Origin: an uncultured Gemmatimonadaceae bacterium
GTDB lineage: Bacteria; Gemmatimonadota; Gemmatimonadetes; Gemmatimonadales; GWC2-71-9
DNA: 64,000 nt
NCBI GenBank assembly: GCA_964642475.1
Contig: CAZXRC010000003.1
Location: forward strand, 46,393-110,392
Reading direction: 5' to 3'
Part shown: positions 7,391 through 49,361 of the stretch, in pieces
Layout: every line of letters begins with the position of its first letter
How positions within the stretch are numbered: the first letter of the stretch is position 1
Position numbers and translations under genes: made by a program
The notes under the pieces: generated by a model
The model's input: only the letters and a program-made list of their open reading frames with translations
What the model was told of the DNA's origin: nothing
Database searches by the model: none

Positions 7391-7444
7391 CCGCGAATAC
7401 GCGGAACGCCGCGGGTGGACGACGATGGGCTCACCGGCGGTGGG

Positions 7445-9211: not shown

Positions 9212-9341
9212 CAGGGTCCAAGCGTGCTCGGGGCTGTTTTCGGCCTGGGGGCCGTTGCTAACACATTGCTGTGCTTGAGAATAGACACTATCTTGGACTT
9301 TATGACCTCAGCCCCCGGCCGGCTGTGATTCGAGGGGAACC

Positions 9342-10862
9342 ATGACGACCCCCGCCGGCATCGTCACCGAATTCGCTCACCTGTTGCTTCTGCTCCGCGA
9401 TCGGCCGGAGCAGAAGGACGAGCAGCGGGAGGCCTTCAAGCGCTTTGCGTCCCTCCTGTCCGAGGAGGACCACCAGCTCCGGCTGACCCCTTCCGGGTTC
9501 ATCTGGGACCATGCCTCGGTCGCCGCCGCGCCGGGAGAATTGGAGGGATTGTACTCCCATCTCCGGGGCCATGGCATCGGCGAGCTCCGTCTGCCCGTGG
9601 GCCTGATGAGCTCGACCTTGATCTCACTCGTGCGTTTGCTCTCCGCCCCCATCGGGACGTACGGCAATTTCGACCACTTGGTCGCCCGGCTCGACGCGGC
9701 CGGCTGCGGCGTGGTGCAGGTGCATCCGATTCCGCCGGCGGAGATCGCCCCGCAGCTCGATCCCCGCATGCGGCCCACCGCCGGCGCCGATAAGGATGGC
9801 CGGCTGACGGCGCTCGGCCCCGGTGCGCTCACCGAGGCCCAGGTCGGGATGATGCACTTCGTCTCGCTCCAGAGCTCGGCGGTGAACCCGACGATGGAGG
9901 TCATGAATCGGCTGGCCCACGCCGATACCTCCGCCGCCACGTCGGAGGCCCTGACCCAGCTGCTGGCCGCGGGCGAAATGGCCTCGCGCCAGGGGGAGTG
10001 GCGGGAAGTCTGTCAGGCGGCCTACGGACTCCTCGAGCTGGAGAAGAAGGCGCCCCCGGAGGAGAACCGCGGCTACGGGATCGCGCTCCGCCGGATGCTG
10101 CCCCGCTCCAACCTCGAGAAGCTGGCCCGGCTCACGGCCCATGGGAACATGAAGTCGGAGGCCACCGCGGTGCTCCGCCGTATGGGCGCGGATGGGACCG
10201 AGGTCCTGCTCAACCTGATGGTCAATTCGGAGGAGATGAACGAGCGCCGGCACTACTTCAGCGCGCTCAAGGAGATGTCCGAGGGCGGCAAGCTCCTGGT
10301 CCACATGCTGAGCCACGACCAGTGGTACGTGGTGCGCAACGTGGCCGATCTCTGCGGGGAGCTCCGGGAAGAACGGTCGGTGCATTCGCTGGCCAAGCAC
10401 ATGCACCATGAGGACGAGCGGGTCCGTCGCGCGGTGGCGGGGGCGCTGGCCAAGATCGGCGGGCCGGGGGCGGTGGAACCGCTGCGTCGGGCCCTTCGGG
10501 ACCCCTCCGCCGCCGTCCGACTGGAAGCGGCCCAGGACCTCGACGGCCGACGGAACAAGGGCCTGGCCATGAGCCTGGCGGTGGCGGCCGACGACGAGTC
10601 ACGCCCGGACGTGCAGCGGCAGATGCACCTGGCCTTGGGCCGGATCGGATCGGCCGAGGCGATCCAGGCGCTGGCCAAGGCGGCGGAGCCGGGGAAGCGG
10701 AGCTTTCTCCGGCGGAAGCCCGTGGCGGTCCGACTCAGCGCCATCGAGGGACTGCACGTCGCCGGTCCCAGCGGAGCCAACGCCCTCAAAGACCTGCTCA
10801 ACGATGAGGAGCCGGCGGTACGCGAGGCGGTGCAGCGGGCCCTCACGACCCTCTGGGAGTAG
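9342..10862 (+). CDS. HEAT-repeat protein (PBS-lyase-type repeats in the C-terminal half; N-terminal half unassigned)
   Basis: Repeated ...VR..A..AL..IG...A...L motifs from about aa 320 onward. Length is 506 aa. Confidence 0.8.
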   Translation: MTTPAGIVTEFAHLLLLLRDRPEQKDEQREAFKRFASLLSEEDHQLRLTPSGFIWDHASVAAAPGELEGLYSHLRGHGIGELRLPVGLMSSTLISLVRLLSAPIGTYGNFDHLVARLDAAGCGVVQVHPIPPAEIAPQLDPRMRPTAGADKDGRLTALGPGALTEAQVGMMHFVSLQSSAVNPTMEVMNRLAHADTSAATSEALTQLLAAGEMASRQGEWREVCQAAYGLLELEKKAPPEENRGYGIALRRMLPRSNLEKLARLTAHGNMKSEATAVLRRMGADGTEVLLNLMVNSEEMNERRHYFSALKEMSEGGKLLVHMLSHDQWYVVRNVADLCGELREERSVHSLAKHMHHEDERVRRAVAGALAKIGGPGAVEPLRRALRDPSAAVRLEAAQDLDGRRNKGLAMSLAVAADDESRPDVQRQMHLALGRIGSAEAIQALAKAAEPGKRSFLRRKPVAVRLSAIEGLHVAGPSGANALKDLLNDEEPAVREAVQRALTTLWE

Positions 10863-12048: not shown

Positions 12049-13296
12049 TTGGTGCCCCGGCGCCCCATCTTCCCCGGACGCCCGACATTCCGACTCCCCG
12101 AGACCTTCGATCACTCCGTGCCCCACACCGCTCTCCGCACCCGGTCGTTTCGCGAGTCGGTCATACGCGGCATGTCCCGCGTCGCCGCCCAGCACGGCGC
12201 CATCAATCTGGCCCAGGGGTTCCCCAACTTCGCGGCGCCCGACATCCTGAAGGAAGCCGCCATCCAGGCCATTCGGGACAATCTCAACCAGTACGCCATT
12301 ACCTGGGGCTCGCGACGACTGCGGGAGGCGGTGGCCCGCAAGTATGCCGCCTGGTACGACATGCAGGTCGATCCCGACGCCGAGGTGACGGTCACCTGCG
12401 GGGCAACCGAGGCGATGGTCGCGACGATGCTCGCGCTGGTCGATCCGGGCGAGGAGGTGATCGTCTTCGAGCCGTTCTACGAGAACTACGGACCCGATGC
12501 GATCCTGTGCGACGCGAGGCCGGTCTACGTGCCGCTCTTTCCGGGGCAGCCACTCGATCTCGACCAGCTGGCCCGGGCGTTCACGTCGCGGACCCGGGCC
12601 ATCATCGTGAATACGCCGGCCAACCCCAGCGGGCGGGTCCTCACCCGGGCCGAACTCGAGGCCATCGCCGGACTCTGCCAGCGCTACGATGCCTACGCGG
12701 TGACCGACGAGATCTACGAGCACATCCGCTACAGCGGCGAGCACATTCCCCTGGCCACCCTGCCGGGGATGCGGGAGCGGACCGTCACGATCAGCGGGGC
12801 CTCGAAGACCTTCAGCATCACCGGGTGGCGGATCGGGACGATCGTTTCGCCGGTGGCGATTACCGAGGCCATCCGGAAGGTGCACGACTTCCTGACGGTG
12901 GGAGCCCCGGCCCCGCTGCAGGAGGGGCTGGCGACGGTGATGGATTCGGTCGGCCCGGCGTTTTACGCCGGCATGGCGGAGGAGTACCTCCGGCGCCGCG
13001 ACCTGCTGTACGCCGCGCTTTGTCGAGCCGGCTTCAAGTGCACCGCGCCCGACGGCGCGTACTATATCCTGGCCGACTTCTCCGCATTGTCCGACCTCCC
13101 GGATACCGAGTTCGCCCTGTGGCTGGCTCGGGAGCGGGGCGTTGCACCGGTGCCGGGTTCCAGCTTCTTCAGTCGCCCCGAGTTGGGCCGCCACTACGTC
13201 CGGTTCGTGTTCTGCAAGACCGACGACCTCCTGACCGAAGCCGCGGCCCGGCTGACGGGCGGCGGGAGCCGGGGAGCGGCGGATGTTCAACGCTGA
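12049..13296 (+). CDS. Class I/II PLP-dependent aminotransferase (YbdL/methionine aminotransferase-like)
   Basis: AINLAQGFPNF motif and the PLP lysine context SGASKTFSITGWRIG. The start is uncertain: TTG at 12049 from the ORF track, while GTG at 12118 fits homolog N-termini better. Confidence 0.88.
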   Translation: MVPRRPIFPGRPTFRLPETFDHSVPHTALRTRSFRESVIRGMSRVAAQHGAINLAQGFPNFAAPDILKEAAIQAIRDNLNQYAITWGSRRLREAVARKYAAWYDMQVDPDAEVTVTCGATEAMVATMLALVDPGEEVIVFEPFYENYGPDAILCDARPVYVPLFPGQPLDLDQLARAFTSRTRAIIVNTPANPSGRVLTRAELEAIAGLCQRYDAYAVTDEIYEHIRYSGEHIPLATLPGMRERTVTISGASKTFSITGWRIGTIVSPVAITEAIRKVHDFLTVGAPAPLQEGLATVMDSVGPAFYAGMAEEYLRRRDLLYAALCRAGFKCTAPDGAYYILADFSALSDLPDTEFALWLARERGVAPVPGSSFFSRPELGRHYVRFVFCKTDDLLTEAAARLTGGGSRGAADVQR

Positions 13297-13341
13297 GACC
13301 TGCCTTTCCCGTGGCAGGAAGTCGGCTTAGAGTTCAGGCCC

Positions 13342-13722
13342 ATGAAGCCCGGCTCACTCCGCCTTCTCCTGGGAACGGCCCAGCTGGTCGTGCTGCTCGG
13401 CATCCAGCTGGCCGAGGGGACCGGCGTGCACCGTTGCCCGGAGCACGACGCCGGCATCGGGGCGGTCTCGGGCGACGAGATGAACGGCCATCAGGGGTTG
13501 GGCCAGGCGGGCCACCACCCCGGCCACGGCCAGCCGGCCCACGCCGCCTGCCACTGCGTCGGTCCCTGTTCCACGGTCACGGCCATGCACCGGGCGGCCG
13601 ATGCTCCCGCCATCGCCCTCGGCCCTCGCCGCTACGCCCAGCCGGGCTCCTACGACGTGGTGGCTCTCCGAGACACCGTCCGCCTCCTTCCCTTCGCCCT
13701 CGGTCCCCCTCCCACCGCCTGA
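13342..13722 (+). CDS. Small secreted His/Cys-rich protein (reminiscent of DUF2946-type proteins found upstream of TonB-dependent metal receptors)
   Basis: N-terminal signal-like segment, then an HHPGHGQPAHAACHCVGPC cluster. It lies 68 nt upstream of the TonB-dependent receptor on the same strand. Confidence 0.55.
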   Translation: MKPGSLRLLLGTAQLVVLLGIQLAEGTGVHRCPEHDAGIGAVSGDEMNGHQGLGQAGHHPGHGQPAHAACHCVGPCSTVTAMHRAADAPAIALGPRRYAQPGSYDVVALRDTVRLLPFALGPPPTA

Positions 13723-13790
13723 TTCGTGACCGCTGACGGTCCGGCCCCATCGGCCGGGCGTCGCCGCGTTCCTCCAACATCAGGCTGATC

Positions 13791-15869
13791 ATGCCACGCC
13801 AGCGCCGTGCGGCGCACGCCCTCGCGCGTGCGACCGTGCTGCTGGGCCTGGGCGGCGCTTCCGCCGTCCAGGCCCAGCAACCAACTCGCGATACCTCGGC
13901 CGTGGAGCTGGAGACCATCACGGTCACGGCCCCCGGTCCCCGCGCTACCCCGCCGGTCGAGCTGTCGGTCGACGTGCCGGCGAAGGTGGTGGCGCGGCAG
14001 CAGAGTGCCAACGCCTACGACCTGATCCGGCGCGCCGCCGGCATCGAAGTGCACGAGCAGGGGCAGGGGCCCGGCTGGGCCTCGGACGTGGTGATCCGGG
14101 GCTTCACCTCGGATCACTCGTCCGATGTCCTGCTGCTGCTCGACGGCGTGCCGATCAACCTGCCGATCCACGGACACGTCGAGGGCTATTCCGACTGGAC
14201 CATCCTCTCGCCGGCAGCGGTACAGGGTATCCGGGTCATTCACGGGCCGGCGAGCCCGCTCTACGGCAATTTCGCCGTCGGAGGCGCGGTGGAGGTGAAC
14301 ACCGCCCAGGATGCCGGTGGGATCGCCGGCTCGGTGGGTGGATCGAGCGACGGCGACGCCTCGGGGTGGGTCCGGGGCGGCCGACGGCACGAACGCTCGG
14401 GTTACCTCTTCGCGGTCCAGGGCGAGCGGGGCGAGGGCTGGCGTGACAACAGCAGCAGCGGGTTGGGCCACGTCGCGCTGCGGGGCTGGCGGCGGCTCGA
14501 CGATCGGACTCGGATCGAGGGGGGACTGACCGGATACGGCTCGGGGTGGGACTCGCCCGGCTTTCTCTCGGTCGCCGACTACAACGCGGGACATCTCGAA
14601 CGCGCGGCCGACCCGACCGACGGTGGGTCGAGCGGGCGCGGGATCCTGCATGGCCGGGTGGCGCGGAGCCTTGCCGCCGGTCGCTCGCTGGATCTGCTGG
14701 GCTGGGTCCAGGTGGCCCGCTCCACCGTGTTCCTGACCGTGCCGGAGGACGGGGCGGCGGAGCAGCAGGAGGAGCGCGACCGGCGATCGGCGGTGGGGTT
14801 CAGCGGCTACTGGCGGGTGCCGGCGGGAAGTGGCGAAACCTGGGCCGGAGTAGGAGGTCGGGCCGATTGGGACACCTACGACCTGTACCATACGGTCGGC
14901 CGCGAACGGGTGGCCACCACCCAACGTACCGACGGCCGCTACCAGGAGGCCAACGCCTACATCCGCAATCGCGGCCTCGCCTGGTCACGGCTCCAGTACG
15001 ACTTCTCCCTCCGGGCCGACCTTGTCCGCTACGCCGCCCGGGACCGGACCGTTCCCGACTCGAGGTTGCGCGATAACGTCACCGCGGTCCTGAGCCCCAA
15101 GTTCGGGGCCCGCTACCTCCTCGGGGGGGGCTGGAGCGCGGTCACGTCGATCAACCGCGGGTTCCGCGGGCCGGTCGGCGTCATCGAGGATGTCCACCAG
15201 CCGCTGGTAACCGCCTGGGCCAAGGAGCTCGGCATCGAGCTCGAAACCGATCGAATCTCGGCCCAGCTTTCGGCGTTCCAGACCGACGTCCGGAACGAGA
15301 AGATCCTGGATCCGGTCACTCTCGAGATCTCCGACGCCGGCCAGAGCCGGCGCCGGGGGTTCTCGGGACAGATCGGTGTCGCGTTGACGCCCCGGTTGCG
15401 GATCTCGGCCGAGGGGACGTTCAACGATGCGAAAATCACGGGCAGCGGTCGCGGATCGTCCGTCGGGCTCCGAGCCAGTCTGGCCACCGACTCCGTCGTC
15501 GGCTTTCCCGTTCCCCCGCTGGCCTATCATGTCGAGCCGTTGAGTCCGGGGTCGCACATCCCGGGGGTGTCCCGCTACCTCGGCCGGGTCGAGGCGGAGT
15601 ACCGGGTCACGGAGCGGGTCGAGCCCCGGGTGTCGGTCCGTTTCGCGGGGCCGTTCACCCCCATCGGGGAAGATGGGGTTCGAACCAAAGCCTACGTGGT
15701 CGCCGATGTCGGCGCGTCGATCGGCCTCACGCCGCGCACCACGCTCGATATCGAACTGCAGAACCTGCTTGACACGAAGTACCCGGAGATCCGCGCTTCC
15801 GGGTTCCTCAATCCGGGCACGCCGCGCACCCTGCGCGCCGCGGTCCGCTTTTCTCCCGCAACTCTCTGA
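13791..15869 (+). CDS. TonB-dependent outer-membrane receptor
   Basis: Signal peptide ending AVQAQQ, plug-domain motifs (ITVTA..., RGF.S...VLLLLDGVPIN), and a beta-barrel C-terminus ending ...RAAVRFSPATL. Confidence 0.9.
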   Translation: MPRQRRAAHALARATVLLGLGGASAVQAQQPTRDTSAVELETITVTAPGPRATPPVELSVDVPAKVVARQQSANAYDLIRRAAGIEVHEQGQGPGWASDVVIRGFTSDHSSDVLLLLDGVPINLPIHGHVEGYSDWTILSPAAVQGIRVIHGPASPLYGNFAVGGAVEVNTAQDAGGIAGSVGGSSDGDASGWVRGGRRHERSGYLFAVQGERGEGWRDNSSSGLGHVALRGWRRLDDRTRIEGGLTGYGSGWDSPGFLSVADYNAGHLERAADPTDGGSSGRGILHGRVARSLAAGRSLDLLGWVQVARSTVFLTVPEDGAAEQQEERDRRSAVGFSGYWRVPAGSGETWAGVGGRADWDTYDLYHTVGRERVATTQRTDGRYQEANAYIRNRGLAWSRLQYDFSLRADLVRYAARDRTVPDSRLRDNVTAVLSPKFGARYLLGGGWSAVTSINRGFRGPVGVIEDVHQPLVTAWAKELGIELETDRISAQLSAFQTDVRNEKILDPVTLEISDAGQSRRRGFSGQIGVALTPRLRISAEGTFNDAKITGSGRGSSVGLRASLATDSVVGFPVPPLAYHVEPLSPGSHIPGVSRYLGRVEAEYRVTERVEPRVSVRFAGPFTPIGEDGVRTKAYVVADVGASIGLTPRTTLDIELQNLLDTKYPEIRASGFLNPGTPRTLRAAVRFSPATL

Positions 15870-30431: not shown

Positions 30432-30908
30432 CTAGTCGTCGTCCTTCTTGGGGGGCGGCGGCGGGACGATGGTGAAGCTCTCGGTTGCGCCGGAGGTCCG
30501 TTCGCAGGTGACGTCGAAGCGGCCCTCGTGCAGCATGGCATCCTCCAGCACCTGGCTGGTGCCACGGCAGGCCGCCACCGGGTGACCCGCGGTGTTGCGG
30601 AACCGGATGATGACCAGGGGCTCGCTCCCCTGGCGGCGGTATTCGCGGCTGAAGACCGGGGTGAGGCTGTCGATGCCCGCCTGGCGCAGGGACGCGGGGA
30701 GCTGACCCCGGTGGGAGCTGCGGTAGGCCATGATCCGGTCGATGATGTCGGAGAGCTCGCGGCCCAGGAGCTGGGCGCTCCCCTCGGGGGTTGCCTGCTC
30801 CGCGGTCGCGGCGGCCGGCTTGCGCTGCTCCCCGCCGCAGGCCAGCACCAGCAGGGTCAGGACGGCGTCGCGGGCCGCCCCGAGCCCCCTACTCCATCGC
30901 GAATTCAC
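30432..30908 (-). CDS. Hypothetical lipoprotein
   Basis: The C-terminal part of the 224-aa ORF. The proposed GTG start at 30908 gives (M)NSRWSRGLGAARDAVLTLLVLAC, a signal peptide plus lipobox. It overlaps the desaturase stop by about 20 nt. The start is uncertain. Confidence 0.5.
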   Translation of the reverse strand: MNSRWSRGLGAARDAVLTLLVLACGGEQRKPAAATAEQATPEGSAQLLGRELSDIIDRIMAYRSSHRGQLPASLRQAGIDSLTPVFSREYRRQGSEPLVIIRFRNTAGHPVAACRGTSQVLEDAMLHEGRFDVTCERTSGATESFTIVPPPPPKKDDD

Positions 30909-31863
30909 GGTTGAACACCACCTCGAAGCTGAAGGTCTTGGCCTTGCTCCGGGACTCGATGTGCTCCGCAATCCGCTGGAGCCGGGCGGGGATCTCCATG
31001 ATCTTCTCCTGCGCCTTGCGTCCCAGCTCGTTGAGCCCGTTGACGGCATCGATCCGCCAGTAGCGGATCTGCTCCTGCACGATGCGCAGGTAGTCCCGCG
31101 GGCCATAGATCCCGGACCGGCGGATCACGTCCGCGATCTCGCGGAAGCCGGGCATGGTGTGGCCGGGCATCTCGATGCTGGGGAGGATGTGGGCCGCCGA
31201 GATCAGGGCCTCGTTGGGATCCCGTTTGAGGATCTCCTCGAAGATGGTGCGGTAGAAGCTGAAGTGGCGCGCTTCCTCGGTGGCCACGTTCCCCAGCACC
31301 TCGGCCAGGAGCGGCTCGTATTCCCCGATGATGCGGCCGGTCTCGGAATGGGACTGCTGGGTGGCCCGCTCCTGGAGGGTGGTGTAGGCGAACACCCGGT
31401 AGGGGTCCTTGTCCCAGACCGGCTGGAACCCGCTCTTGAGATAGCTGAACTGCATCTGCTCCAGCCGGGTCTGATCGAGGATCCGGGTGTCGCGGATGTA
31501 ATCATGCAGGATCACGCCGTGTCGGTCCTCCTCGGCGGTCCAGAGGTTGTTCCAGGCCTGCCAGTGGCTCGCGTCGCCCAGGTACACCGCCAGCAGCCGG
31601 TGAAAGTGCGGTAATCCTTCCTCGGTCAGCATGTTGAGCGCGAGGGCCGCCCGGGCGGAGTCGGGAATCCCCGCGGCCCGCTTGCGCAGCGCCGCGACGT
31701 GGGCATCCGGGTCGTCACCGGGCCGGGGGCCCAGCACCTCGTTGGGCATCCAGAGCGGACGCTTCCGCTCGTGCTGCTCCATGAGGTCCAGGACCGTCTG
31801 TTCGAGGTCACGAAGGACCTCGACCTTGGTGAAGAACTGGCGTGCGGCTTCGGTCAACGTCAT
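30889..31863 (-). CDS. Soluble acyl-ACP desaturase (di-iron, stearoyl-ACP desaturase family)
   Basis: Two di-iron ExxH motifs in the expected context (WTAEEDRHG and ATEEARHFSFY). Length is 324 aa. Confidence 0.88.
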   Translation of the reverse strand: MTLTEAARQFFTKVEVLRDLEQTVLDLMEQHERKRPLWMPNEVLGPRPGDDPDAHVAALRKRAAGIPDSARAALALNMLTEEGLPHFHRLLAVYLGDASHWQAWNNLWTAEEDRHGVILHDYIRDTRILDQTRLEQMQFSYLKSGFQPVWDKDPYRVFAYTTLQERATQQSHSETGRIIGEYEPLLAEVLGNVATEEARHFSFYRTIFEEILKRDPNEALISAAHILPSIEMPGHTMPGFREIADVIRRSGIYGPRDYLRIVQEQIRYWRIDAVNGLNELGRKAQEKIMEIPARLQRIAEHIESRSKAKTFSFEVVFNREFAME

Positions 31864-35385: not shown

Positions 35386-35401
35386 TGGCCCCCTTCTTGC
35401 C
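35386..35401 (+). promoter_or_regulatory. Sigma-54-type promoter candidate (TGGCCC-N5-TTGCC) upstream of the che operon
   Basis: GG and GC elements are at canonical spacing, 47 nt upstream of the first cheY ATG, within a 300-nt divergent intergenic region. Confidence 0.35.
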
Positions 35402-35447
35402 GATTTCCGATAGCGATTCCCCCTGTTCCGAGCAGTTGGAGGTCGCC

Positions 35448-35825
35448 ATGCGGATTCTCGTGGTCGAGGACTCGCCGCTGGTCCAGAAGATGTATGGGCT
35501 CGCGTTTCCCCAGCGTCAGCACACGCTGGTTACCGCGGCGAATGGGCGCGTGGCCCTTTCGCTCCTCGACTCGGAGGGCGGCACCTTCGACCTGATCCTG
35601 CTCGATCTCCGGATGCCGGATATGAACGGGGTGGAGTTTCTGAGCGCGCTGCGGCGCCATACCGTCGCCCCCATTCCGGTGGTGCTGACGACGGCCGAGC
35701 CGCCAGGGTCGCCCATGGTGGAGCAGGCCAGGGCCCTGGGCGCTGCCGCGGTGGTCCACAAGCCCTGGCACCCGAACGAGCTTCGCGACCTGGTCCGGCA
35801 GGTGGTGCCGGAGGAGATCGCCTGA
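35448..35825 (+). CDS. cheY: Single-domain response regulator (CheY-like) 1
   Basis: MRILVVEDSP..., phospho-acceptor context LILLDLRMPDMNG, conserved Lys in VHKPW. ATG 35448 lies inside the longer ORF. Confidence 0.88.
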   Translation: MRILVVEDSPLVQKMYGLAFPQRQHTLVTAANGRVALSLLDSEGGTFDLILLDLRMPDMNGVEFLSALRRHTVAPIPVVLTTAEPPGSPMVEQARALGAAAVVHKPWHPNELRDLVRQVVPEEIA

Positions 35826-36226
35826 TGCACGGCACCTGTCTGGTCGTGGACGATTCGCGGCTGCATCACCAGATGTACCAGATGATTTTCCGCCGGCCCG
35901 AGCTGGCGGGCTGCACGCTGCTCCACGCCTTCGATGGACGCGAGGGTTACACCCTGCTTCGGGCCCACCCTGAGCTCCGCCTGGTCTTCCTCGACCTGAA
36001 CATGCCGGTGATGACCGGTCTCGAGTTCCTCCACCGGCGCCGGGAAGAGGATCTGCATCCGCATGTGCCGGTGGTGCTGGTCACGACCGAGTCCACCGCC
36101 GAAGACGAGGCCCGCGGGATCGAGGCCGGCGCCTGGGGATACCTCTGCAAGCCGTTCCAGCCGGAGCAGCTGCTGGCCCTGGTGGCCCGCGCCTCCCGCC
36201 TCTCGCAGCACGCGTCGCGACCATGA
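35825..36226 (+). CDS. cheY: Single-domain response regulator (CheY-like) 2
   Basis: CLVVDDS..., LVFLDLNMPVMTG, YLCKPF. Its start codon overlaps the stop of the upstream cheY-like gene by 1 nt (TGATG at 35823-35827), and its own stop overlaps the cheA start by 4 nt. Confidence 0.88.
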   Translation: MHGTCLVVDDSRLHHQMYQMIFRRPELAGCTLLHAFDGREGYTLLRAHPELRLVFLDLNMPVMTGLEFLHRRREEDLHPHVPVVLVTTESTAEDEARGIEAGAWGYLCKPFQPEQLLALVARASRLSQHASRP

Positions 36227-37917
36227 GCCCGCCGCAACACCCCTTCGCCGCCCTGCTGGCCGAGTATGTCGCCGAGTGCCTGCCGCTGGCCGAGGACGCC
36301 GCCGAACGAGCGGTCGCGCTCGAACGCGAATGGAGAGAGCAGGGGGACGACGAGGACCTGGCCCGGCCGCTCAAGGGAACGCTCCACACGATCAAGGGCA
36401 ACTCGGCCATGATGGGCCTCATCGGCCTCCAGACCCTGACCCACCGTCTGGAAGACCTCTGGAGTGCGCTGCTGGCCGATCGGGACAGCCGTTCCGCCGG
36501 CGGGTCGCTGCTGGTGCGGGGCACCGGTCTTCTGGCCGACCTGGTGCGCTCCACCGCCTCGGCCCCTCCGGCGGAGGACGCCGCGGCGGCCTTCCTCGAG
36601 GAGATCGAGGCCTTTCTGGCGGGGGACCCGGGAGCGCGCGAGGCGGCCCGCGCGGAGCGACGGGCGCCCGACCGACGCGCCAGCGAGCGTCGGCACACCC
36701 GGGCGGTCGGGGAGATCGGGGCGGATGGTGTCGTCACCACGGTCCGGGTCGAATCGCACCGGCTGGATGCGCTGCTCGAGACCTTCGGCGAGGTGATGAT
36801 CGCCCAGGCGGGCCTGCGCGACGCGGTGCGCCAGCGGCGTGGCCGTGCACCCGGGGATCCGGCGCATCTCGAGCGATCCATGCTGGGACTCGAGCGCACC
36901 CTCAAGCGACTGGAACACGATCTCATGGAGACCCGGTTGTTGCCGGTCTCGACCGTCTTCACCCGCTTTACCCGGCTGGTGCGCGACCTGGCTCATGGCG
37001 AAGGGAAGCTGGTGCGCCTCGCCGTCGCGGGGGGCGAGACCCGGCTCGACAAGACGATGATCGATCGGCTGGGCGAGCCGCTGGTGCACCTGCTCACCAA
37101 TGCGGTCATTCACGGGATCGAGCCTCCCGAGGAGCGCCTGGCCCGCGGCAAGCCGGCCGAGGCGGTGGTCACCCTGCGGGCGGTGCAGCGCTCCGATCGG
37201 GTGATCCTGACAGTGACCGACGACGGCCGCGGCCTCGACCCCGAGGCCATCCTTCGGAAGGCCCGGGCCCAGGGCCAGGCGCCGGCCACCGATACCCTGT
37301 CGCTCTCGGAGGTGTATGCCCTCGCCTTCCTCCCCGGGATCTCGACTGCGGACACGGTCTCCCACCTCTCGGGCCGGGGCGTGGGGCTGGACGTTGTCGC
37401 CAGCTCCATTCGGGCCCTGTCCGGGAACGTGGCGGTGGGGAGCGAGCCCGGGCGGGGCACCACCTTCTCGCTCCGGCTCCCGCTGACGGTGGCGGTGCTG
37501 CGCTCGCTGCTGGTGGAGGTCGATGGGGAGCGCTACGCCCTGCCCCTGGTCGACGTGGCCGAGACCGTCCGAGTCGAGGCCGGGATGATGCACCAGGTGG
37601 TGCGCCAGGGGATGATGAGCTGGCGCGGGGAAGTGATTCCCCTGCTCGACGGCGGGCAACTGCTGGGCCGGCCTTCCGACCGGCAGCGGACCTACTGTGT
37701 CGTGCTCCGGTCGTCGGGGACCCGGCATCGGGGCCTCATGGTGGACGCGCTCCTCGGACATCAGGACGTAGTGGTAAAGGCCCTGGATCCCGCATTGGGC
37801 CGGCCGCCGGCGGTGGCGGCGGCCACGATCCTGGGCGACGGACGCGTCGCCTGCATTCTCGATACCGGCCGGGTGGCCGACGGGTGGGTCGAGTCCCTTG
37901 CCACCCAGGCATCCTGA
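36223..37917 (+). CDS. cheA: Chemotaxis histidine kinase CheA (Hpt-dimerisation-HATPase-CheW-like; no obvious P2 domain)
   Basis: Hpt site LHTIKGNSAMMG, N-box HLLTNAVIHGIE, G1 DDGRGLD, G2 GRGVGLDVV, and a C-terminal CheW-like domain. Confidence 0.92.
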   Translation: MSPPQHPFAALLAEYVAECLPLAEDAAERAVALEREWREQGDDEDLARPLKGTLHTIKGNSAMMGLIGLQTLTHRLEDLWSALLADRDSRSAGGSLLVRGTGLLADLVRSTASAPPAEDAAAAFLEEIEAFLAGDPGAREAARAERRAPDRRASERRHTRAVGEIGADGVVTTVRVESHRLDALLETFGEVMIAQAGLRDAVRQRRGRAPGDPAHLERSMLGLERTLKRLEHDLMETRLLPVSTVFTRFTRLVRDLAHGEGKLVRLAVAGGETRLDKTMIDRLGEPLVHLLTNAVIHGIEPPEERLARGKPAEAVVTLRAVQRSDRVILTVTDDGRGLDPEAILRKARAQGQAPATDTLSLSEVYALAFLPGISTADTVSHLSGRGVGLDVVASSIRALSGNVAVGSEPGRGTTFSLRLPLTVAVLRSLLVEVDGERYALPLVDVAETVRVEAGMMHQVVRQGMMSWRGEVIPLLDGGQLLGRPSDRQRTYCVVLRSSGTRHRGLMVDALLGHQDVVVKALDPALGRPPAVAAATILGDGRVACILDTGRVADGWVESLATQAS

Positions 37918-37923
37918 GGGTTC

Positions 37924-38439
37924 ATGCCCGACAGCATCCTCGATTTTGCCGCGCACCTCGAGTCCCCTCCCGCCGCCCCCGCGGTGGTCGAGCGGGAGCT
38001 GCATCTGGTGGTGTTCCGGCTGGACCGGGAGGAGTACGGGATTCCGATCGACGCGGTGCGTGAGGTCGTCCGCGTGGCCGACGTGACCCGGGTGCCGCAT
38101 GCGCCGGCCGATATCCGCGGGGTCATGAATCTGCGCGGCCGGATTCTCCCGATCGTCGAAATCCGCTCGCGTCTCGGCCTGGCGCCCGCCGAGCTCACCC
38201 CCGCGGCCCGGGTGGTGGTGGTCGAAGTGGCGGGACGGGTGCTGGGTCTGCTGGTCGACGCGGTGGGCCAGGTGGTCCGGGTGGGCGAGGGTCAGCTGGC
38301 CCTCCCGCCCGACGAAGTCCGCGCCGCCGGCGCCGAGGCGGTGACCGGTGTGGCCCGATTGGGCCAGCGGCTCCTCATTCTCCTCGATCTGACTCGCGCC
38401 CTGTCGGCGTTCTCCCCTTCACCGGTGTCCGCGCCATGA
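37924..38439 (+). CDS. cheW: Chemotaxis coupling protein CheW
   Basis: 171 aa. Typical motifs: [22 protein letters not shown]... and [15 protein letters not shown]. Confidence 0.92.
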
Positions 38440-39914
38440 GCGACTCGATCCTCCAGACCATTCGGGACTGGAACATCCGCCGCAAGATCCTCTCGGGCTT
38501 TTCGGTCGTGCTGCTGGTGACCGCCGCCCTCGGCGCCGCGGCCATCGGGGCCCTCGACCGCATGCACGCCGTGGCGCAGAGCGGGGGCGTCGGGAGCGAG
38601 GCGATTTACCGGGACAGCCGGCTCCTGATCTTCGGGCTGCTGGTCACGGCGGTGGTGCTGGGCGTTCTCACCGCCCTCTTCCTCGCCCGGCTCATCGCCG
38701 ACCCGCTCACCCGTCTTGGCCTGGCGGCGGAGGAGGTCTCGAAGGGAGACCTGACCGTCGACATTCGGAGCGGGTCGCGCGACGAGATCGGCTGGCTCGA
38801 ACACCTCATGCGCCAGATGGTGAAGAACCTGCGGGGCATGGTTTCCCAGATCGCCACGTCGTCGCGCACCGTCGCCACCAGCGCCGAGGAGATCTCGGCC
38901 TCGAGCACCCAGATGGCGAAGGGGGCGGAGGCCCAGTCCAGCTCCAGCGAGGAGACCTCGAGCACCATGGTGGAAATGGCCGCCCAGATGCAGGCCCTCA
39001 CCAAGAGCGCCGAGTCCCTGGCGGCGAATGTGGACCAGACGTCGGCCGCCATTCAACAGATGAGCAGCGTCCTGGCCCAGACCGCCTCCAACGGCGAGCA
39101 GCTCCTGACCTCGGTCGAAGGGGTCACGGCGACGCTGACCGAGATGATCGAGACGGTGGGCTCGATCGCCAGCCGGGTCCACCAGGTCGACGAGGTCTCG
39201 CGCAAGTCGGTCTCGGAGGCCAAGAGCGGGGGTGAACGGCTGCACAGCTCCATCGCCGCCATCGACGAGCGTTCCCATGAGATCGGTAAGATCGTGCGGG
39301 TCATCGAGGACATCGCCGACCAGACCAACCTGCTGGCGCTCAATGCCACGATCGAGGCCGCCCGGGCGGGCGACGCCGGCAGGGGGTTCGCGGTGGTGGC
39401 CGACGAGGTCCGTCGTCTGGCCGAACGGTCGGTGCAGGCGACCGGCGAAATCGCCGAGGTGATCGGGAACGTGCAGAAGGAGACTCGCGCGGCGGTGAGC
39501 CTGATGGAACAGGTCCTCTCCGGCATCGTGGGCTCGGTCGACCAGACCTCGCGGCTGGTGACCGAGGCGGCCCACGCCACCGAGGAGCAGGCCGCCGGGG
39601 CCCGGCAGGTGCTCCAGATGGCGGCCAGCATGTCCACCCTGACCCGGCTCATCGCCAATTCGGTGCGGGAGAACGCCGCCGGCGCCCGGGAGATCACCCA
39701 GGCGGCCGAGAAGATGAACCGGCTGACTCACCAGATGTCGGACGCGGTCAACGAGCAGAAGCGGGGCGGGGACATGATCGTCAAGGCGATCGAGTCGATC
39801 GCGCTGGTGTCGCGCCAGAACCTGGTGGCGGTGGAGCAGATGAGCGGCGCGGCCAAGGGTCTGGCCGGCGAGTCGGAGTCGCTCCGCGAACGCATCGAGA
39901 TCTTCCGGACCTGA
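38436..39914 (+). CDS. Methyl-accepting chemotaxis protein with two TM helices separated by a loop of only about 22 aa, then HAMP and signalling domain
   Basis: HAMP domain after TM2. Highly conserved hairpin tip [40 protein letters not shown]. Confidence 0.92.
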
Positions 39915-39915
39915 C

Positions 39916-41931
39916 GTGACTGCCGCCCCGCGCCCGCTGGCGGCCCGGCTCGCCGGGCTCACGAGTCCCGCGGATCGCGAGGCCCGCGAGCGGCTGCTGC
40001 TCGAGAGCCTGGCCGACTTCTCGCCGCAGGTGCGGACCACGGCCGTCGCCCTGGCCGCCCGCGAGCTCGAGCCCGAGCGGCTGGTGTCGCTGGTGGCCGA
40101 GAGCGCCGATTCGGTGCTCCGCAACGCGGCGCTGGCGGCGCTCGAGCGGCAGGGGCCCTACGCCCGGAGCGCGGTGGAACAGGCGGTCTTTGCCGCCGAT
40201 CAGGATCTCGCGATGTTCGCCTGTCAGGTGTTGGGGAGCATCGGCGGCGCCTCCAGCGCCCCGGCCCTCCTCCAGGCTCTGGGCCGGACCGAGGTGAACG
40301 TGGTGCATGCCGCCTCCGAAGCCCTGGGCCGACTCCGTCGGCCGGAGGCGATCGAACCGCTGCTGTCGCTGCTCCAGGGAGAGCCGTGGCTCCAGCTGGC
40401 CGCGGCCGACGCCCTGGGTGCCATCGGCGACAGCAAGGCCGCCGAAGGGCTCCTCGCGCTGCTCCCCGACTCGATGGTCGCGGACGCGGCGCTGGACGCG
40501 CTGGCACGCATCGCGGCGCCGGCCGCGCTGCCGCGACTCCTCGAACTCCTCAGCCAGCCCCGCTCGCGGAATCTCTGGCCCGGCCTGCTCCGTGCCGCTG
40601 GCGCCGCTCTGCGGCGCTCCGACCCGCCAGCGGAGGCCACCGCCGAGGCCCTGGCCCGCTTCGGACGGAGCGTCGAGTCTGACCACGGACCGGCCAGCCT
40701 CTGGGGGTTCCTCGCCGAGCGGCTGGGGGGCGAGCAGGAGGACGACCGACCCACCCGGCCCGACGATCGGGCCCAGGCCCGGGGTACCGGGCCGAGTCTG
40801 CAGGCAACCGGCGCGCTGGTGCTCGCCTCCGGGATCACCAGCCTGCTGCCGCTGGTGCTCCGCTGGGGGGAGCTGCCCCCCTCCCGAGCCTGGCTCGCGC
40901 CGCTGGTGCAGCGGCATCTGGCCGGACTCCTTCCGCTCATCGGCTCGCTCCTGGCGCATCCCGACCCCGCCGTCCGGGCGGGTACGCTCGCGCTGGTTCC
41001 CGCCGATTCGGTGGGGGCCGCGGCGCTTTGCCGGGCGCTGGAGGACCCGGCGACCGGCGTGCGGATCGCGGCCTGCCAGTCGCTGGCTGAGGCCCCGGAG
41101 ACTGCCGCGACGATGGCGCTCACTTCGCTGCTGGATCAGGGGACGCCGGCCGAGCGGGCGGGGGCCGCCCAGGCGCTCATCCGGCTGCCCGAGTCCGCCT
41201 ATCTCCAGGTTCTGGGCTCGCGTCTCGCCGCGACCCGGGATGAGACGACCCTGATCGCGGTGTTGGCTGCGCTGGCCGAGGTCGATGCGCCAGGGCTGGA
41301 GGAGACGCTGCTCCGGATTGCCGTCCAGGTGAGCGGCTCCCTTCGCCGGGTGGCGCTGCGCGCGGTGGCGCGCGTTCCCGGCTCGCGGTCCGAGGCGCTG
41401 CTGCTCCGCGCCCTGGCGGAGGACGATCAGGGACACCAGGTCGAGGCCCTGGACCTCCTGGTGACGCGCGGCGGGGACCAGGTCCTCACCACGCTCGTGG
41501 CCCTGCTCGGCACGGGCAACTCGCTTCGATACCACGTCATTCGCGCGTTGGGGCGCCTGGGCCGCTCCGAGGCCACCACCCCGCTGATCGCGCTCTATTC
41601 CGAGGCGCCGCTGCACGAGCGGATCGAGATCCTCACCACCCTGAGCCGCCTGAGCGGTCGGGACGCAACCCCATTTTTGCTGGGGGCGCTGCAGGACCGC
41701 CAGCCCGAGATCCGCCGGGTGGCGGCCCAGGCGCTCGGGGCCCACGCCGGTTCGGGTGACCAGGCACTGCTGGCCCAGTTGGCGAACGACGAGGACTGGG
41801 TGGTCCGGGCCGAAGCGGCCCGGGCGCTGGGACGGCTCGGGGGGGCCGGCCGGGCCCTGCTGCTCGAGCTGGGGCGGGACCTCGAGCCCACGGTGGCGCG
41901 CACGGCACGAGCCGCGCTTGCGGGGCGATGA
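39916..41931 (+). CDS. HEAT-repeat (PBS-lyase-like) protein embedded in the che operon (Cpc7-like position)
   Basis: 671 aa of repeated ...VR..AA.ALG.....A...L motifs. The GTG start is 2 nt after the MCP stop. A 4-nt overlap joins it to cheR. Confidence 0.85.
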   Translation: MTAAPRPLAARLAGLTSPADREARERLLLESLADFSPQVRTTAVALAARELEPERLVSLVAESADSVLRNAALAALERQGPYARSAVEQAVFAADQDLAMFACQVLGSIGGASSAPALLQALGRTEVNVVHAASEALGRLRRPEAIEPLLSLLQGEPWLQLAAADALGAIGDSKAAEGLLALLPDSMVADAALDALARIAAPAALPRLLELLSQPRSRNLWPGLLRAAGAALRRSDPPAEATAEALARFGRSVESDHGPASLWGFLAERLGGEQEDDRPTRPDDRAQARGTGPSLQATGALVLASGITSLLPLVLRWGELPPSRAWLAPLVQRHLAGLLPLIGSLLAHPDPAVRAGTLALVPADSVGAAALCRALEDPATGVRIAACQSLAEAPETAATMALTSLLDQGTPAERAGAAQALIRLPESAYLQVLGSRLAATRDETTLIAVLAALAEVDAPGLEETLLRIAVQVSGSLRRVALRAVARVPGSRSEALLLRALAEDDQGHQVEALDLLVTRGGDQVLTTLVALLGTGNSLRYHVIRALGRLGRSEATTPLIALYSEAPLHERIEILTTLSRLSGRDATPFLLGALQDRQPEIRRVAAQALGAHAGSGDQALLAQLANDEDWVVRAEAARALGRLGGAGRALLLELGRDLEPTVARTARAALAGR

Positions 41932-42761
41932 AGGAGGCGACCGACACCGACTGGAAACTGGTGACCGACCTCCTGGCCGAGCGGTTCGGCCTGAACTTCG
42001 CCGGAGGTCGCGAGGAGATCCTCGAGGCCAGGCTCCGGCCCCGGCTCGAGGCGCTCGGCCTCGACGGACTCCGTGAGTACTACCACTATCTTTGCCTGCA
42101 CCCGGGCCGGGACGCGGAATTCGCCGAGTTGACCGCCCGGATCACCAACAACGAGACCTACTTCTTCCGGGAAGAAGCCCAGTTCGAGGTGATCGTCCAG
42201 CACCTCCTTCCCGAGTCCGCCATGCTGATGCGGGAGCGGCCACTGCGGATCCTCAGCGCGGCCTGTTCCTCCGGCGAGGAGCCCTATTCTCTCTCCATCC
42301 GCCTGGTGGACAGCGGCCATGAGCTCCTGGGCGGCCGCTGGGATATCGAAGCCTGCGATCTCAATCCCATCCGGCTGGAGACGGCCCGGCAGGCGGTCTA
42401 TGAAGGATTCGCCTTTCGCAACTGCGACGAGGACACCCGTCGCCGCTGCTTCCAGGAGGTCGAGCCGGGTCGCTACCGGCTGCGCGAACGCTACCGGCGG
42501 GCGGTGCGCTTCTTCCAACTCAACCTGGCCGCGCCGGTGATCGGACTCCCCTGGTCCGGCTATGACATCGTGCTCTGCCGCAATCTGCTCATTTACTTCA
42601 CACCCGAAGGTTTCGACCGACTGATCACCCGCTTTGCCCGGCTGATCCGTCCCGGCGGCTACCTCTTCCTGGGCCACTCCGAGTCGCTGACCGGCCGTCC
42701 GGAGTTCGAGCCGGTCTATTTCCAGCAGACCATGGGCTACCGCCGGACCGACACCCCATGA
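41928..42761 (+). CDS. cheR: Chemotaxis protein methyltransferase CheR
   Basis: SAM-binding motif ILSAACSSGEEPYSLSI, and DIVLCRNLLIYF. Confidence 0.92.
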   Translation: MKEATDTDWKLVTDLLAERFGLNFAGGREEILEARLRPRLEALGLDGLREYYHYLCLHPGRDAEFAELTARITNNETYFFREEAQFEVIVQHLLPESAMLMRERPLRILSAACSSGEEPYSLSIRLVDSGHELLGGRWDIEACDLNPIRLETARQAVYEGFAFRNCDEDTRRRCFQEVEPGRYRLRERYRRAVRFFQLNLAAPVIGLPWSGYDIVLCRNLLIYFTPEGFDRLITRFARLIRPGGYLFLGHSESLTGRPEFEPVYFQQTMGYRRTDTP

Positions 42762-43792
42762 TCCGGGTCTTCGTGGTGGACGACTCGCCCTTCGTGCGGA
42801 AGGCGCTTCGGCGGGTGCTGTCGGCCGACGCCGGGATCCAGGTCGTGGGCGAGGCGACCACCGGCGAGGAGGCCCTGGCCCTCATTCCCGATGCCGACCC
42901 GCACGTCGTCACGCTCGACGTCGAGATGCAGGGCATCAGCGGCCTCGACGTGCTCCGCCAGCTGCTCCTCTGGCGACCCGGGCTCCGGGTCCTGATGCTC
43001 TCCGCCCACACCCGTGACGGGGCGGCCGCCACGCTGGACGCCCTGGCCGCGGGCGCGGCCGACTTCATCGACAAACAGAGTCTCAACCTGATGGATCTCG
43101 AGCGACTGGGCCGGGAACTGGGCGAGCGACTCCGGGCCCTGGGGGGCGAGCGTGACACCCACACATCGAAAGCGGGGGCCGCGGCGGCGCCGGTCCGGCG
43201 GGACGCGGTCCATCTCCCCACCTCGGCCGACCTGCACCGGGCGGAGGTCTGCGTCATCGGGGCGAGCACCGGCGGTCCCGCCGCCCTGCAGACCCTGCTC
43301 GAAGGACTGCCGGCGCGGTTCCCCATCCCGGTGGCCATCGTGCAGCACATGCCGCTCGGCTTCACCCGGCCGTTCGCGGCGCGGCTCGACGGGCTCTGCC
43401 GTCTCCGGGTCAGGGAGGCGGAGGCGGGGCAGCGGCTGGTGGCCGGCGAGGTGGTGATCGCCCCGGCGGGAAGTCACCTCCGTCTCACGCCCAGCCTCAC
43501 CACCCTGCTCAGCACCGACGCGGGGGGCGCCCGCCACGTCCCCAGCGTCGACGTGCTCTTCCGGTCGGCTGCCCGGGCCCGGCCCGGTGCGGCCCTCGGC
43601 ATCCTGCTCACGGGGATGGGTGACGATGGCGCCGACGGGCTGAGTCAGATCCGGGCTCATGGCGGCACGACCATCGCGGAGAGCGAGGAGAGTTGCGCCG
43701 TCTACGGGATGCCCCGGGCGGCGGTGCAGCGCGGCGCGGCGCAGTTCATCCTGCCGGTGCGCGAGATCGGCAGGGTCCTGGCCGCGATGTAG
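42758..43792 (+). CDS. cheB: Chemotaxis response regulator protein-glutamate methylesterase CheB
   Basis: N-terminal REC domain (IRVFVVDDS...VVTLDVEMQGISG) and a methylesterase domain (GASTGGPAAL, QHMPLGFT, LTGMGDDG). Confidence 0.92.
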   Translation: MIRVFVVDDSPFVRKALRRVLSADAGIQVVGEATTGEEALALIPDADPHVVTLDVEMQGISGLDVLRQLLLWRPGLRVLMLSAHTRDGAAATLDALAAGAADFIDKQSLNLMDLERLGRELGERLRALGGERDTHTSKAGAAAAPVRRDAVHLPTSADLHRAEVCVIGASTGGPAALQTLLEGLPARFPIPVAIVQHMPLGFTRPFAARLDGLCRLRVREAEAGQRLVAGEVVIAPAGSHLRLTPSLTTLLSTDAGGARHVPSVDVLFRSAARARPGAALGILLTGMGDDGADGLSQIRAHGGTTIAESEESCAVYGMPRAAVQRGAAQFILPVREIGRVLAAM

Positions 43793-48417: not shown

Positions 48418-48896
48418 AAACTCCTCTTTTCATTGTGACGCGGGTCTCGGTCTGGTGTCCGTTCGGCCAAGAGAGGTACGCGCTACGTTGCGCGCCCATC
48501 TCACGGCCCCCAGGACGACCTCGCCCCCCCCGCATATAGGGGTCGCGACTCAAGGGTGATGTCAGTCGCGAGATCGGATCCTCCGAGTATCGGAGAATTC
48601 AAACACGGCCCCCCCGGCTGGCAGGGGGCCCGCAAGGCCAACCTAGCGCGCCCCCCCACCCCGCTGTCCAGCCTGCGTCGGTAGCGCCGACGGAATCGTG
48701 TTCGGGGGTTGACACCGCGAATCACCAGTGGACCGCTTACCTCCCAACCACTTACCCCTGACCCAGCGACCCGAAGAGAGACCGGCGCCAGGTGGCGATA
48801 ATGAGTCACTGTTTCCGTGGTTTCAGTGATCGAGTCGCCCCAGCCGATACTGAGGGCGGGAGCCCTCTGATCGTCACCGCCCAGGCACAGGACGCA

Positions 48897-49361
48897 ATGG
48901 AAGAGCAGGGGAAGGGCAGGCTTTCGCTCAAGTACGAGCTGGCGGGCACCAACCCGCAGCGGCTCACGCATGCCCCCCCGGCCGCCGGTCCCCGGGTGCT
49001 GATCGTGGACGACGACCCTGACATGACCCGCCTGCTCGGGGCCGCGCTCGCCGGCGCCGGGCTGCAGTGCCTCGCGGCGTACGACGCGCTGCAGGGCATG
49101 GTGGTGGCGACGCGCGAGGCCCCGGCGGTGATCGTGGTGGACCTCCACATGCCCGCGGGCGGGGGCCTCAAACTCCTCGAGAAGCTCCGAGCCAGCGTAA
49201 AGACGGCCAACACCCCGGTGCTGGTGGTCACGGCCGACACCGCCTCCGACCTGCCGTCCAGGGCGCTTGCCCTTGGCGCCCGCGGCTTCCTCACCAAGCC
49301 GCTCGATCCGGCCCGCCTGCTCGACGCCATCACTCCGCTACTTACCCCGGCCGCGCCGTAA
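48897..49361 (+). CDS. Single-domain response regulator (receiver only)
   Basis: REC domain RVLIVDDDPDM...VIVVDLHMPAGGG...FLTKPL. The start is uncertain: the ORF opens at GTG 48792, and ATG 48897 is chosen. Confidence 0.75.
   Translation: MEEQGKGRLSLKYELAGTNPQRLTHAPPAAGPRVLIVDDDPDMTRLLGAALAGAGLQCLAAYDALQGMVVATREAPAVIVVDLHMPAGGGLKLLEKLRASVKTANTPVLVVTADTASDLPSRALALGARGFLTKPLDPARLLDAITPLLTPAAP

Follow-up and report, generated by a model that had tools for sequence, protein, structure and literature searches.

A Che7-like chemosensory operon with an embedded HEAT-repeat protein in an uncultured Gemmatimonadaceae bacterium

The DNA considered here is a 64,000-nucleotide stretch (the window) of contig CAZXRC010000003.1 from an uncultured Gemmatimonadaceae bacterium of the Gemmatimonadales, with a G+C content of ~70%. 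Positions 35448–43792 of its forward strand carry eight genes, cheYa, cheYb, cheA, cheW, mcp, a gene for a HEAT-repeat protein, cheR and cheB, all of which could be assigned with Pfam. The operon is an ordinary, intact example of a known and little-studied, Che7-like kind of chemosensory system, not an unprecedented one. The junctions between its genes are, in operon order, -1, -4, +6, -4, +1, -4 and -4 nt, which fits a single translationally coupled operon and agrees, on recomputation, with an earlier note made by a model from the sequence alone, where the eight genes were described as packed, with anything from 4-nt overlaps to a 6-nt gap. The start of the stretch given there, 35386, does not hold as a gene start: there is no start codon at this position, which is out of frame with cheYa and lies 62 nt 5' of its ATG. 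A sigma-54-like TGGCCCCCTTCTTGC element, treated below, begins with this base.

The first two genes, cheYa (35448–35825, + strand; ATG start with a GGAGG Shine-Dalgarno sequence) and cheYb (35825–36226, +), encode receiver (REC) proteins of 125 aa (E=1.6e-22) and 133 aa (E=4e-21). They are followed by cheA (36223–37917, +; 564 aa) and by cheW (37924–38439, +), which encodes a coupling protein of 171 aa (CheW E=5e-36). The receptor, a methyl-accepting chemotaxis protein (MCP) of 492 aa, is encoded by mcp (38436–39914, +) and contains a HAMP domain and an MCPsignal domain (E=6e-42). The HEAT gene (39916–41931, +) has a GTG start and encodes a protein of 671 aa (HEAT_2 E=5e-43). CheR (41928–42761, +; 277 aa) consists of CheR_N and CheR domains (E=1e-44) and has no TPR domain, and CheB (42758–43792, +; 344 aa) has an N-terminal REC and a CheB_methylest domain, scores 354 bits against the NCBIfam CheB model, above the cutoff, and retains its GASTGG, H197 and GMGDDG motifs. 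All core parts are present with their catalytic or phospho-acceptor residues intact, and the operon encodes a complete chemosensory pathway. It is flanked by a divergent gene of the Yip1 family on its 5' side and by a convergent mgtE 3' of cheB.

CheA has the P1-P3-P4-P5 architecture (Hpt, dimerisation, HATPase and CheW-like domains in Pfam), with His55 in an HTIKG motif and no C-terminal REC domain. Its P1 and P3 domains are separated by ~45 low-complexity residues, which leave no room for a P2 domain, as had been noticed before. CheAs without P2 make up 52% of the total (PMC10782961), and because more than half of all CheAs lack the domain, its absence is not diagnostic and says nothing on function.

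The operon had also been called "ACF-like", after the chemosensory class of alternative cellular functions (ACF), and this label is not supported. The complete ACF list, Table S2 of PMC10782961 (Berry/Zhulin 2023) with 1,503 rows, contains only five CheAs from Myxococcus xanthus, all of them CheA-REC hybrids, of 714, 726, 777, 798 and 848 aa. Four of these lengths match CheA3-6 in PMC3945109 and the 777-aa protein is presumably FrzE. CheA7 (683 aa) is absent from the list and is therefore not ACF by the Zhulin-lab classification, and the CheA of the window likewise lacks a REC domain. The sole ACF CheA of G. aurantiaca is a CheA-REC hybrid of 742 aa (PMC10782961); indeed, almost all ACF CheAs listed for Myxococcota, Geobacterales, Nitrospirota and Gemmatimonas are such hybrids, unlike the CheA of the window. 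The ACF systems, among them P. aeruginosa Wsp, R. centenum Che3 and M. xanthus Che3-6 and Frz, are non-flagellar pathways and share with the window adaptation by CheR and CheB, but their outputs are enzyme or DNA-binding response regulators, with no HEAT partner. The NCBIfam models carry no information on chemosensory class. A non-motility function is still plausible for the operon.

The receptor has two hydrophobic segments, at residues ~17–43 and 60–92, with ~22 residues between them and no periplasmic domain, in agreement with the first description. The tip of its cytoplasmic hairpin is at D313, with an N-arm (from the end of HAMP to the tip) of 180 aa and a C-arm of 179 aa. The tip sequence aligns to Tsr and PcaY, and the alignment offsets to Tsr (36H, that is, of the 36-heptad class) agree with ~8 extra heptads per arm, which places the receptor roughly in the long ~52H class (51–52 heptads), as an estimate by length and not by hidden Markov model classification. 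Methylation-type EE pairs are present and there is no C-terminal pentapeptide. The C-arm is invariant at 179 aa in nearly all Gemmatimonadales orthologues and has 182 aa in four (L045, L082, L100 and L110). A sister type, found in Acidobacteriota, Nitrospirota and Geobacteraceae together with HEAT proteins of ~787–790 aa, has a C-arm invariant at 252–253 aa; by length, a 253-aa arm goes beyond even 64H, the longest class named.

The two CheY proteins are 38% identical. Both have the acidic pocket, T87 and K109 (E. coli CheY numbering). CheYb has the complete set of D12, D13, D57, T87, Y106 and K109, while in CheYa, which retains the phospho-acceptor residues, position 106 is a valine and the aromatic switch residue is missing. 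Tyr106 is kept in 41 of 42 CheYb-type receivers of HEAT clusters, and V, I or T occupies this position in 12 of 13 CheYa-type receivers. The receivers encoded beside HEAT clusters in Acidobacteriota, Nitrospirota and Myxococcota are 40–53% identical to CheYb and are closer to it than to CheYa. CheYa is confined to a subclade of Gemmatimonadales: 13 of the fetched loci have both CheYs and at least seven have CheYb alone. On these sequence comparisons CheYb is the conserved cognate CheY of HEAT-type clusters across phyla and would be the ancestral signalling CheY, and CheYa may be a later, phosphorylatable addition lacking the aromatic switch, for which the simplest role would be that of a phosphate sink or modulator. 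A further single-domain response regulator, an orphan, is encoded 5 kb downstream of the operon (48762–49361, +; REC at aa 79–190 of the open frame). It is only 24–38% identical to the receivers of HEAT clusters and is absent at that position in the related locus L001.

The AlphaFold2 model of the HEAT protein (predicted local distance difference test, pLDDT, 89; predicted template modelling score, pTM, 0.77) contains 42 helices arranged in two all-alpha solenoid arms, residues 1–270 and 293–671, joined by a disordered acidic/basic linker. A Foldseek comparison of the model with the PDB returns generic protein-binding HEAT scaffolds only (CAND1, SF3B1, karyopherins, PP2A-A), and no enzymatic domain is present. 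The protein is thus predicted to be an enzyme-less alpha-solenoid. No fusions of REC, MCP or CheR to HEAT were found among the odd-length matches examined. A second HEAT_2/HEAT_PBS protein of up to ~518 aa is encoded elsewhere in the window (9306–10862, +), with no che genes nearby and without the family signature described below.

The Pfam HEAT_PBS repeats matched in the protein, a type of repeat it has in common with the phycobilin lyase-type proteins CpcE, CpcF and NblB, and its low-scoring NCBIfam hits on NblB (60 bits) and on CpcE (56 bits), might indicate a bilin-lyase-type protein or an unrelated passenger of the operon, with no part in chemosensing. These scores are far under the curated cutoffs of 300 bits for NblB and 330 bits for CpcE, phycobiliprotein genes are absent, and CpcE, CpcF and NblB are far shorter (~210–270 aa) and occur in an unrelated context. 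The start and stop codons of the HEAT gene overlap those of its neighbors, and its conservation in che operons across phyla effectively refutes this highly improbable explanation.

The spread of the family was followed with a signature derived from an alignment of near and distant homologues, N-[VIL]-x-[HQ]-x6-G-x19-W-[LIV]-Q-[LYF]-x-[AT]-x2-[AG]-L, which lies at aa 128–170 of the HEAT protein of the window and has the short form NVxH-x6-G-x19-W[LIV]Q. Further conserved motifs are RNAALAALERQGPYA, SLRYHVIRALGRLG and DW..R.EAARALGRL. Among the best 120 matches of a search with the HEAT protein, ~109 are full-length clusters of 39–72% identity, and where a source is named these are almost all from metagenome-assembled genomes (MAGs) of Gemmatimonadales/Gemmatimonadota. 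The strict signature is found in 96 of the 109 close homologues and in none of the giant HEAT proteins, and among 267 fetched proteins it matched members of the family alone. A profile search of 1.84 billion representatives gave 202,319 matches, dominated by giant multi-repeat HEAT proteins, and is unsuited to delimiting the family; it did expose the sister HEAT family, of ~790–800 aa. A hand-built degenerate DNA version of the signature gave one match each in the window and in loci L001–L004, with no false positives.

A scan of one genome per GTDB species with the DNA signature gave at least 120 loci. The 120 listed loci, to which the counts of loci and gene neighborhoods that follow refer, comprise 51 from Gemmatimonadales/Gemmatimonadota, 31 from Acidobacteriota, 11 from Nitrospirota, 8 from Myxococcota, 6 from Geobacteraceae and 13 from others. 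In 105 of them core che genes, detected by tblastn with the Che proteins of the window, lie in the same 8-kb block. The HEAT gene stands directly between mcp and cheR in all 28 Gemmatimonadales loci in which both flanks are visible, and the same holds for 14 loci of Acidobacteriota; in Nitrospirota and Geobacteraceae it is often placed between two cheR genes, and Polyangia-type loci have it between cheW and cheR. Those blocks from Myxococcales MAGs in which che genes seemed to be missing show TPR, REC and DUF4388/GAF genes followed by HEAT. In the complete genome of Anaeromyxobacter paludicola this same TPR/REC/DUF4388-HEAT module runs on into a che cluster. The earlier note had allowed that the HEAT gene might not be conserved within che clusters; the 28 of 28 Gemmatimonadales loci and the occurrences in other phyla show that it is. 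Judged by this conservation, the signature-bearing HEAT family is no passenger: across at least five phyla it is an integral, fixed part of che operons.

Several other genes accompany the family. DUF4388/PatA_N proteins fused with GAF or REC (L102, 969–6226; L125, 7330–12978; L003, 14325–15929; L004, 14325–15928) are encoded directly upstream of HEAT in Myxococcota and downstream of cheB in the Acidobacteriota-like type. A gene for an AAA_22 ATPase is inserted between cheA and cheW in clusters with a ~787-aa HEAT (L003, 6043–6858; L004, 6042–6857), and in L004 a DDE transposase takes the place of cheY-cheA. Copies labelled Solirubrobacterales, Ca. Limnocylindria and Hyphomicrobium (P0004, L059 and L073) are near-Gemmatimonadales or Acidobacteriota-type versions on short contigs, of 2.5–4 kb for the Solirubrobacterales- and Limnocylindria-labelled ones, and these odd taxon labels are probably MAG binning errors.

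Dozens of related genomes contain the operon in full, HEAT gene included. L001 has the identical eight-gene order, with 53–54% identity to the window in the HEAT protein and 79% in the MCP, and has Yip1, MgtE, PAP2 and saccharopine-dehydrogenase genes in common with the window among its flanks. Many other Gemmatimonadales loci show the same eight-gene order, and the downstream MgtE, CutA and PAP2 synteny recurs in several of them, because of which the operon is taken as vertically inherited chromosomal DNA of Gemmatimonadales. The CheAs of HEAT-type clusters in other phyla are 36–50% identical to that of the window, while the paralogous CheA from a second che cluster in the Gemmatimonadales relative L002 is only 31% identical; the comparison suggests that the HEAT-type system is inherited as a unit. 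In L002 itself the HEAT cluster lacks both cheYs, keeps only a 182-aa remnant of cheA and has a cheB broken into two open reading frames (ORFs) (7436–7984, 12820–13922), an arrangement that looks like decay of the HEAT-type pathway. The second che cluster of L002, which is complete, lies together with a GGDEF-PilZ gene directly upstream of the HEAT cluster.

The closest known system is the che7 operon of M. xanthus, MXAN_6965-6958, with the order CheY7-CheA7-CheW7-Mcp7-MXAN_6961-CheR7-CheB7-MXAN_6958 (PMC3945109; PMC4320627). It encodes a CheY7 of 125 aa, a CheA7 of 683 aa without REC, a CheR7 of 273 aa and a CheB7 of 348 aa (PMC3945109; PMC4320627). Apart from its extra 5' cheY, the operon of the window equals che7 in gene content and order, as the Che7-like label first given to it implied. 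Both operons have eight genes, and in both the HEAT gene follows mcp and precedes cheR. They also agree in a single-domain CheY of ~125 aa, a REC-less CheA, a CheR without TPR (273 aa against 277 aa in the window) and a CheB of ~345 aa, and for either system the proposed partner of phosphorylated CheY (CheY~P) is the HEAT protein. Later summaries of Darnell 2014 state that CheY7 directly binds Cpc7, in agreement with what the earlier note stated, and ascribe to Che7 roles in development and in resistance to temperature stress (PMC11514114; PMC9040617). An effect of Che7 on membrane composition is reported as well.

Che7 has no second CheY, its CheA is longer (683 aa against 564 aa) and its host belongs to the Myxococcota and not to the Gemmatimonadales. 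The MCP of the window, of 492 aa with two transmembrane segments, HAMP and ~52 heptads, differs from Mcp7, which has 821 aa, is cytoplasmic and lacks HAMP. The window also has a sigma-54-type promoter, unlike Che7, and no desaturase gene in or beside the operon, the convergent mgtE following cheB where che7 has MXAN_6958. The latter gene is presumably the fatty-acid desaturase gene that the earlier note ascribes to the Che7 cluster. The likeness to Che7 is one of gene content and order, and the HEAT protein would be at most a putative orthologue of Cpc7 (MXAN_6961).

A HEAT-repeat protein encoded among che genes is also found in the che/fla region of Halobacterium salinarum, where OE2401F, with HEAT_PBS repeats, binds to CheY as well as to Fla proteins and is needed for switching of the motor (PMC2666748). 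Unlike the system of the window, it is archaeal and is tied to the archaellum via DUF439/CheF proteins, and no reliable orthologues of it were found outside haloarchaea (PMC2666748). The HEAT family signature itself is found in the clusters of Anaeromyxobacter paludicola (AP025592.1) and Geomonas sp. Red32, which also have a CheA of ~570 aa without REC and CheYb-type receivers. The order in A. paludicola is REC-GAF/PatA_N-HEAT-REC-GAF-CheD-CheA(571 aa)-MCP-CheR-CheB-CheW, with HEAT between two REC genes, and that in Geomonas sp. Red32 is Y-A-W-MCP-CheR-HEAT; the receptors of both carry sensor domains, unlike the MCP of the window. The paper on Geobacter che clusters makes no mention of HEAT or PBS proteins.

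These comparisons lead to a model in which the two-transmembrane hairpin receptor, having no periplasmic domain, would report the state of the membrane or the cytoplasm to CheA through CheW, with adaptation of the receptor by CheR and CheB. Phosphate would pass from CheA-P1 to CheYb, and CheYb~P would bind the HEAT scaffold via its alpha4-beta5-alpha5 face, by analogy with CheY7-Cpc7 in M. xanthus. The contact of the scaffold with an effector encoded outside the operon would then change, and CheYa, phosphorylatable and without the Tyr106 switch, would serve as phosphate sink or modulator. That the HEAT protein is the output we infer from M. xanthus and Halobacterium. As a whole, with CheA phosphorylating CheYb, CheYb~P binding a HEAT scaffold that relays to an effector and CheYa acting as a sink, the model is held with a little more belief than doubt.

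Several observations weigh against it. No Myxococcus protein occurs among the best 120 matches of the search with the HEAT protein of the window, and a profile search centred on Myxococcota has none either among its best 120, with scores down to 567 bits; the 120 loci listed for the DNA signature may not extend as far as M. xanthus. The receptor of the window is transmembrane and of ~52H, while Mcp7 is a cytoplasmic receptor, of 40H as reported (PMC3945109). The operon contains no evident effector gene, and the genes that most often adjoin HEAT directly are mcp and cheR and not cheY.

The position of the gene suggests another role for the protein: it could assist the receptor array in structure or adaptation, with the long receptor bundle and/or CheR and CheB as its binding partners, and would then not be the target of CheY~P. 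This is in line with the MCP|HEAT|CheR order in the 28 Gemmatimonadales and 14 Acidobacteriota loci and with the presence of cheR on either side of HEAT in several Nitrospirota and Geobacteraceae loci. The associated receptors are without exception long (by length, at least ~48H), and the size of the HEAT protein tracks the receptor type, proteins of ~640–680 aa being paired with C-arms of 167–180 aa and those of ~787–790 aa with the 253-aa C-arm. This relation is based on 2–4 independent lineages only and is not strict, as L044 pairs a 797-aa HEAT with a 197-aa arm; the same locus led to rejection of the simple rule in which the HEAT protein is a "ruler" of the receptor. In Myxococcota, moreover, HEAT has REC genes on its flanks and does not adjoin mcp or cheR, and in both experimental precedents, as far as the M. 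xanthus work is summarised in later papers, it is CheY that the HEAT protein binds (PMC11514114; PMC2666748). An accessory role of this kind is considered unlikely.

The pathway could alternatively steer a flagellum or type IV pili whose genes lie in another part of the genome, in which case the HEAT protein would link CheY~P to the motor as an adaptor, on the Halobacterium pattern. The requirement of the haloarchaeal HEAT_PBS protein for motor switching and its binding of CheY and Fla proteins (PMC2666748) provide a precedent, M. xanthus CheA7 is not on the ACF class list, the CheA of the window has no REC and CheYb is a classical CheY with Y106; furthermore, the view of this genome extends to 64 kb only. 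However, a Pfam sweep of all called ORFs detected no flagellar, pilus or gliding genes in these 64 kb, which agrees for this stretch with what had been stated of flagellar and pilus genes, and the ~20-kb loci L001–L004 and L125 contain no motility gene either. M. xanthus has no flagella and yet keeps Che7, the receptor lacks a ligand-binding domain, and no cultured Gemmatimonas species is named among the HEAT matches listed. Motor control through such an adaptor appears quite unlikely, and a non-motility process is a more likely output of the pathway than flagellar control.

The remaining genes of the window are housekeeping genes (MetH, peptidases, transporters) and three other two-component or extracytoplasmic function (ECF) modules. 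A soluble acyl-ACP desaturase gene, mentioned in the earlier note in connection with Che7, is present at 30889–31863 on the reverse strand (FA_desaturase_2 E=3e-95). The gene is real, and its link to the operon does not stand: it lies 3.6 kb away on the opposite strand, with four unrelated genes in between (GNAT, DcuC, a small ORF and Yip1), and has no counterpart in 125 listed related loci, including L001, where 5.5 kb of upstream sequence are visible. The desaturase was rejected as part of the system for this lack of synteny.

Upstream of the operon, a sigma-54-type -24/-12 promoter-like element, TGGCCCCCTTCTTGCC, occupies positions 35386–35401 (+), with GG-N10-GC spacing, 48–62 nt upstream of cheYa. 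A lone TGGCCCCCTTCTTGCC match at two mismatches is by itself not significant. The element is, however, recurrent: of 18 Gemmatimonadales operons, 15 have GG-N6-YYTTGC at a distance of 53–161 nt upstream of their first cheY, against a window background of 7 matches in 128 kb, or 0.013 expected per 230 nt, and none of 7 operons from other phyla has it at this place. Besides the window, the Gemmatimonadales loci with the element are L001, L113, L095, L040, L008, L047, L099, L119, L005, L046, L084, L103, L110 and L117. Because the element is kept in 15 of 18 operons against so low a background, the operon is probably RpoN-dependent and activator-dependent in Gemmatimonadales. As for other signals, the operon region shows one consensus sigma-70-like match, upstream of the operon on the opposite strand, and 3 terminator-like matches, with 1.5 expected from shuffles.

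To our knowledge, it is common for genomes to encode chemosensory pathways whose outputs are non-flagellar or unknown, and for very few of these has the output been established; we know of HEAT-repeat partners of CheY documented in two organisms only, and of no HEAT component listed in current classifications such as MiST. A tentative and rather doubtful proposal is that the signature-bearing HEAT proteins are not orthologues of Cpc7 and mark a distinct, ancient, cross-phylum chemosensory class with an array-bound solenoid. If true, this class would span Gemmatimonadota, Acidobacteriota, Nitrospirota, Desulfobacterota and Myxococcota and would be characterized by unusually long receptors, whose tip-to-end length has a set value of 179 or 253 aa, by a CheA of ~565–571 aa with the P1-P3-P4-P5 architecture and by a Tyr106 CheY. 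The solenoid would then be a stoichiometric part of the signalling array, bridging the receptor, CheR and CheY~P.

Whichever role the solenoid may have, the signature provides an annotation handle for genes now labelled just "HEAT repeat domain-containing protein". The most useful outcome is a HEAT family that, by its conservation, is fixed in che operons of at least five phyla and has two cultured carriers, Anaeromyxobacter paludicola and Geomonas sp. Red32, which open an experimental route to the function of the scaffold.

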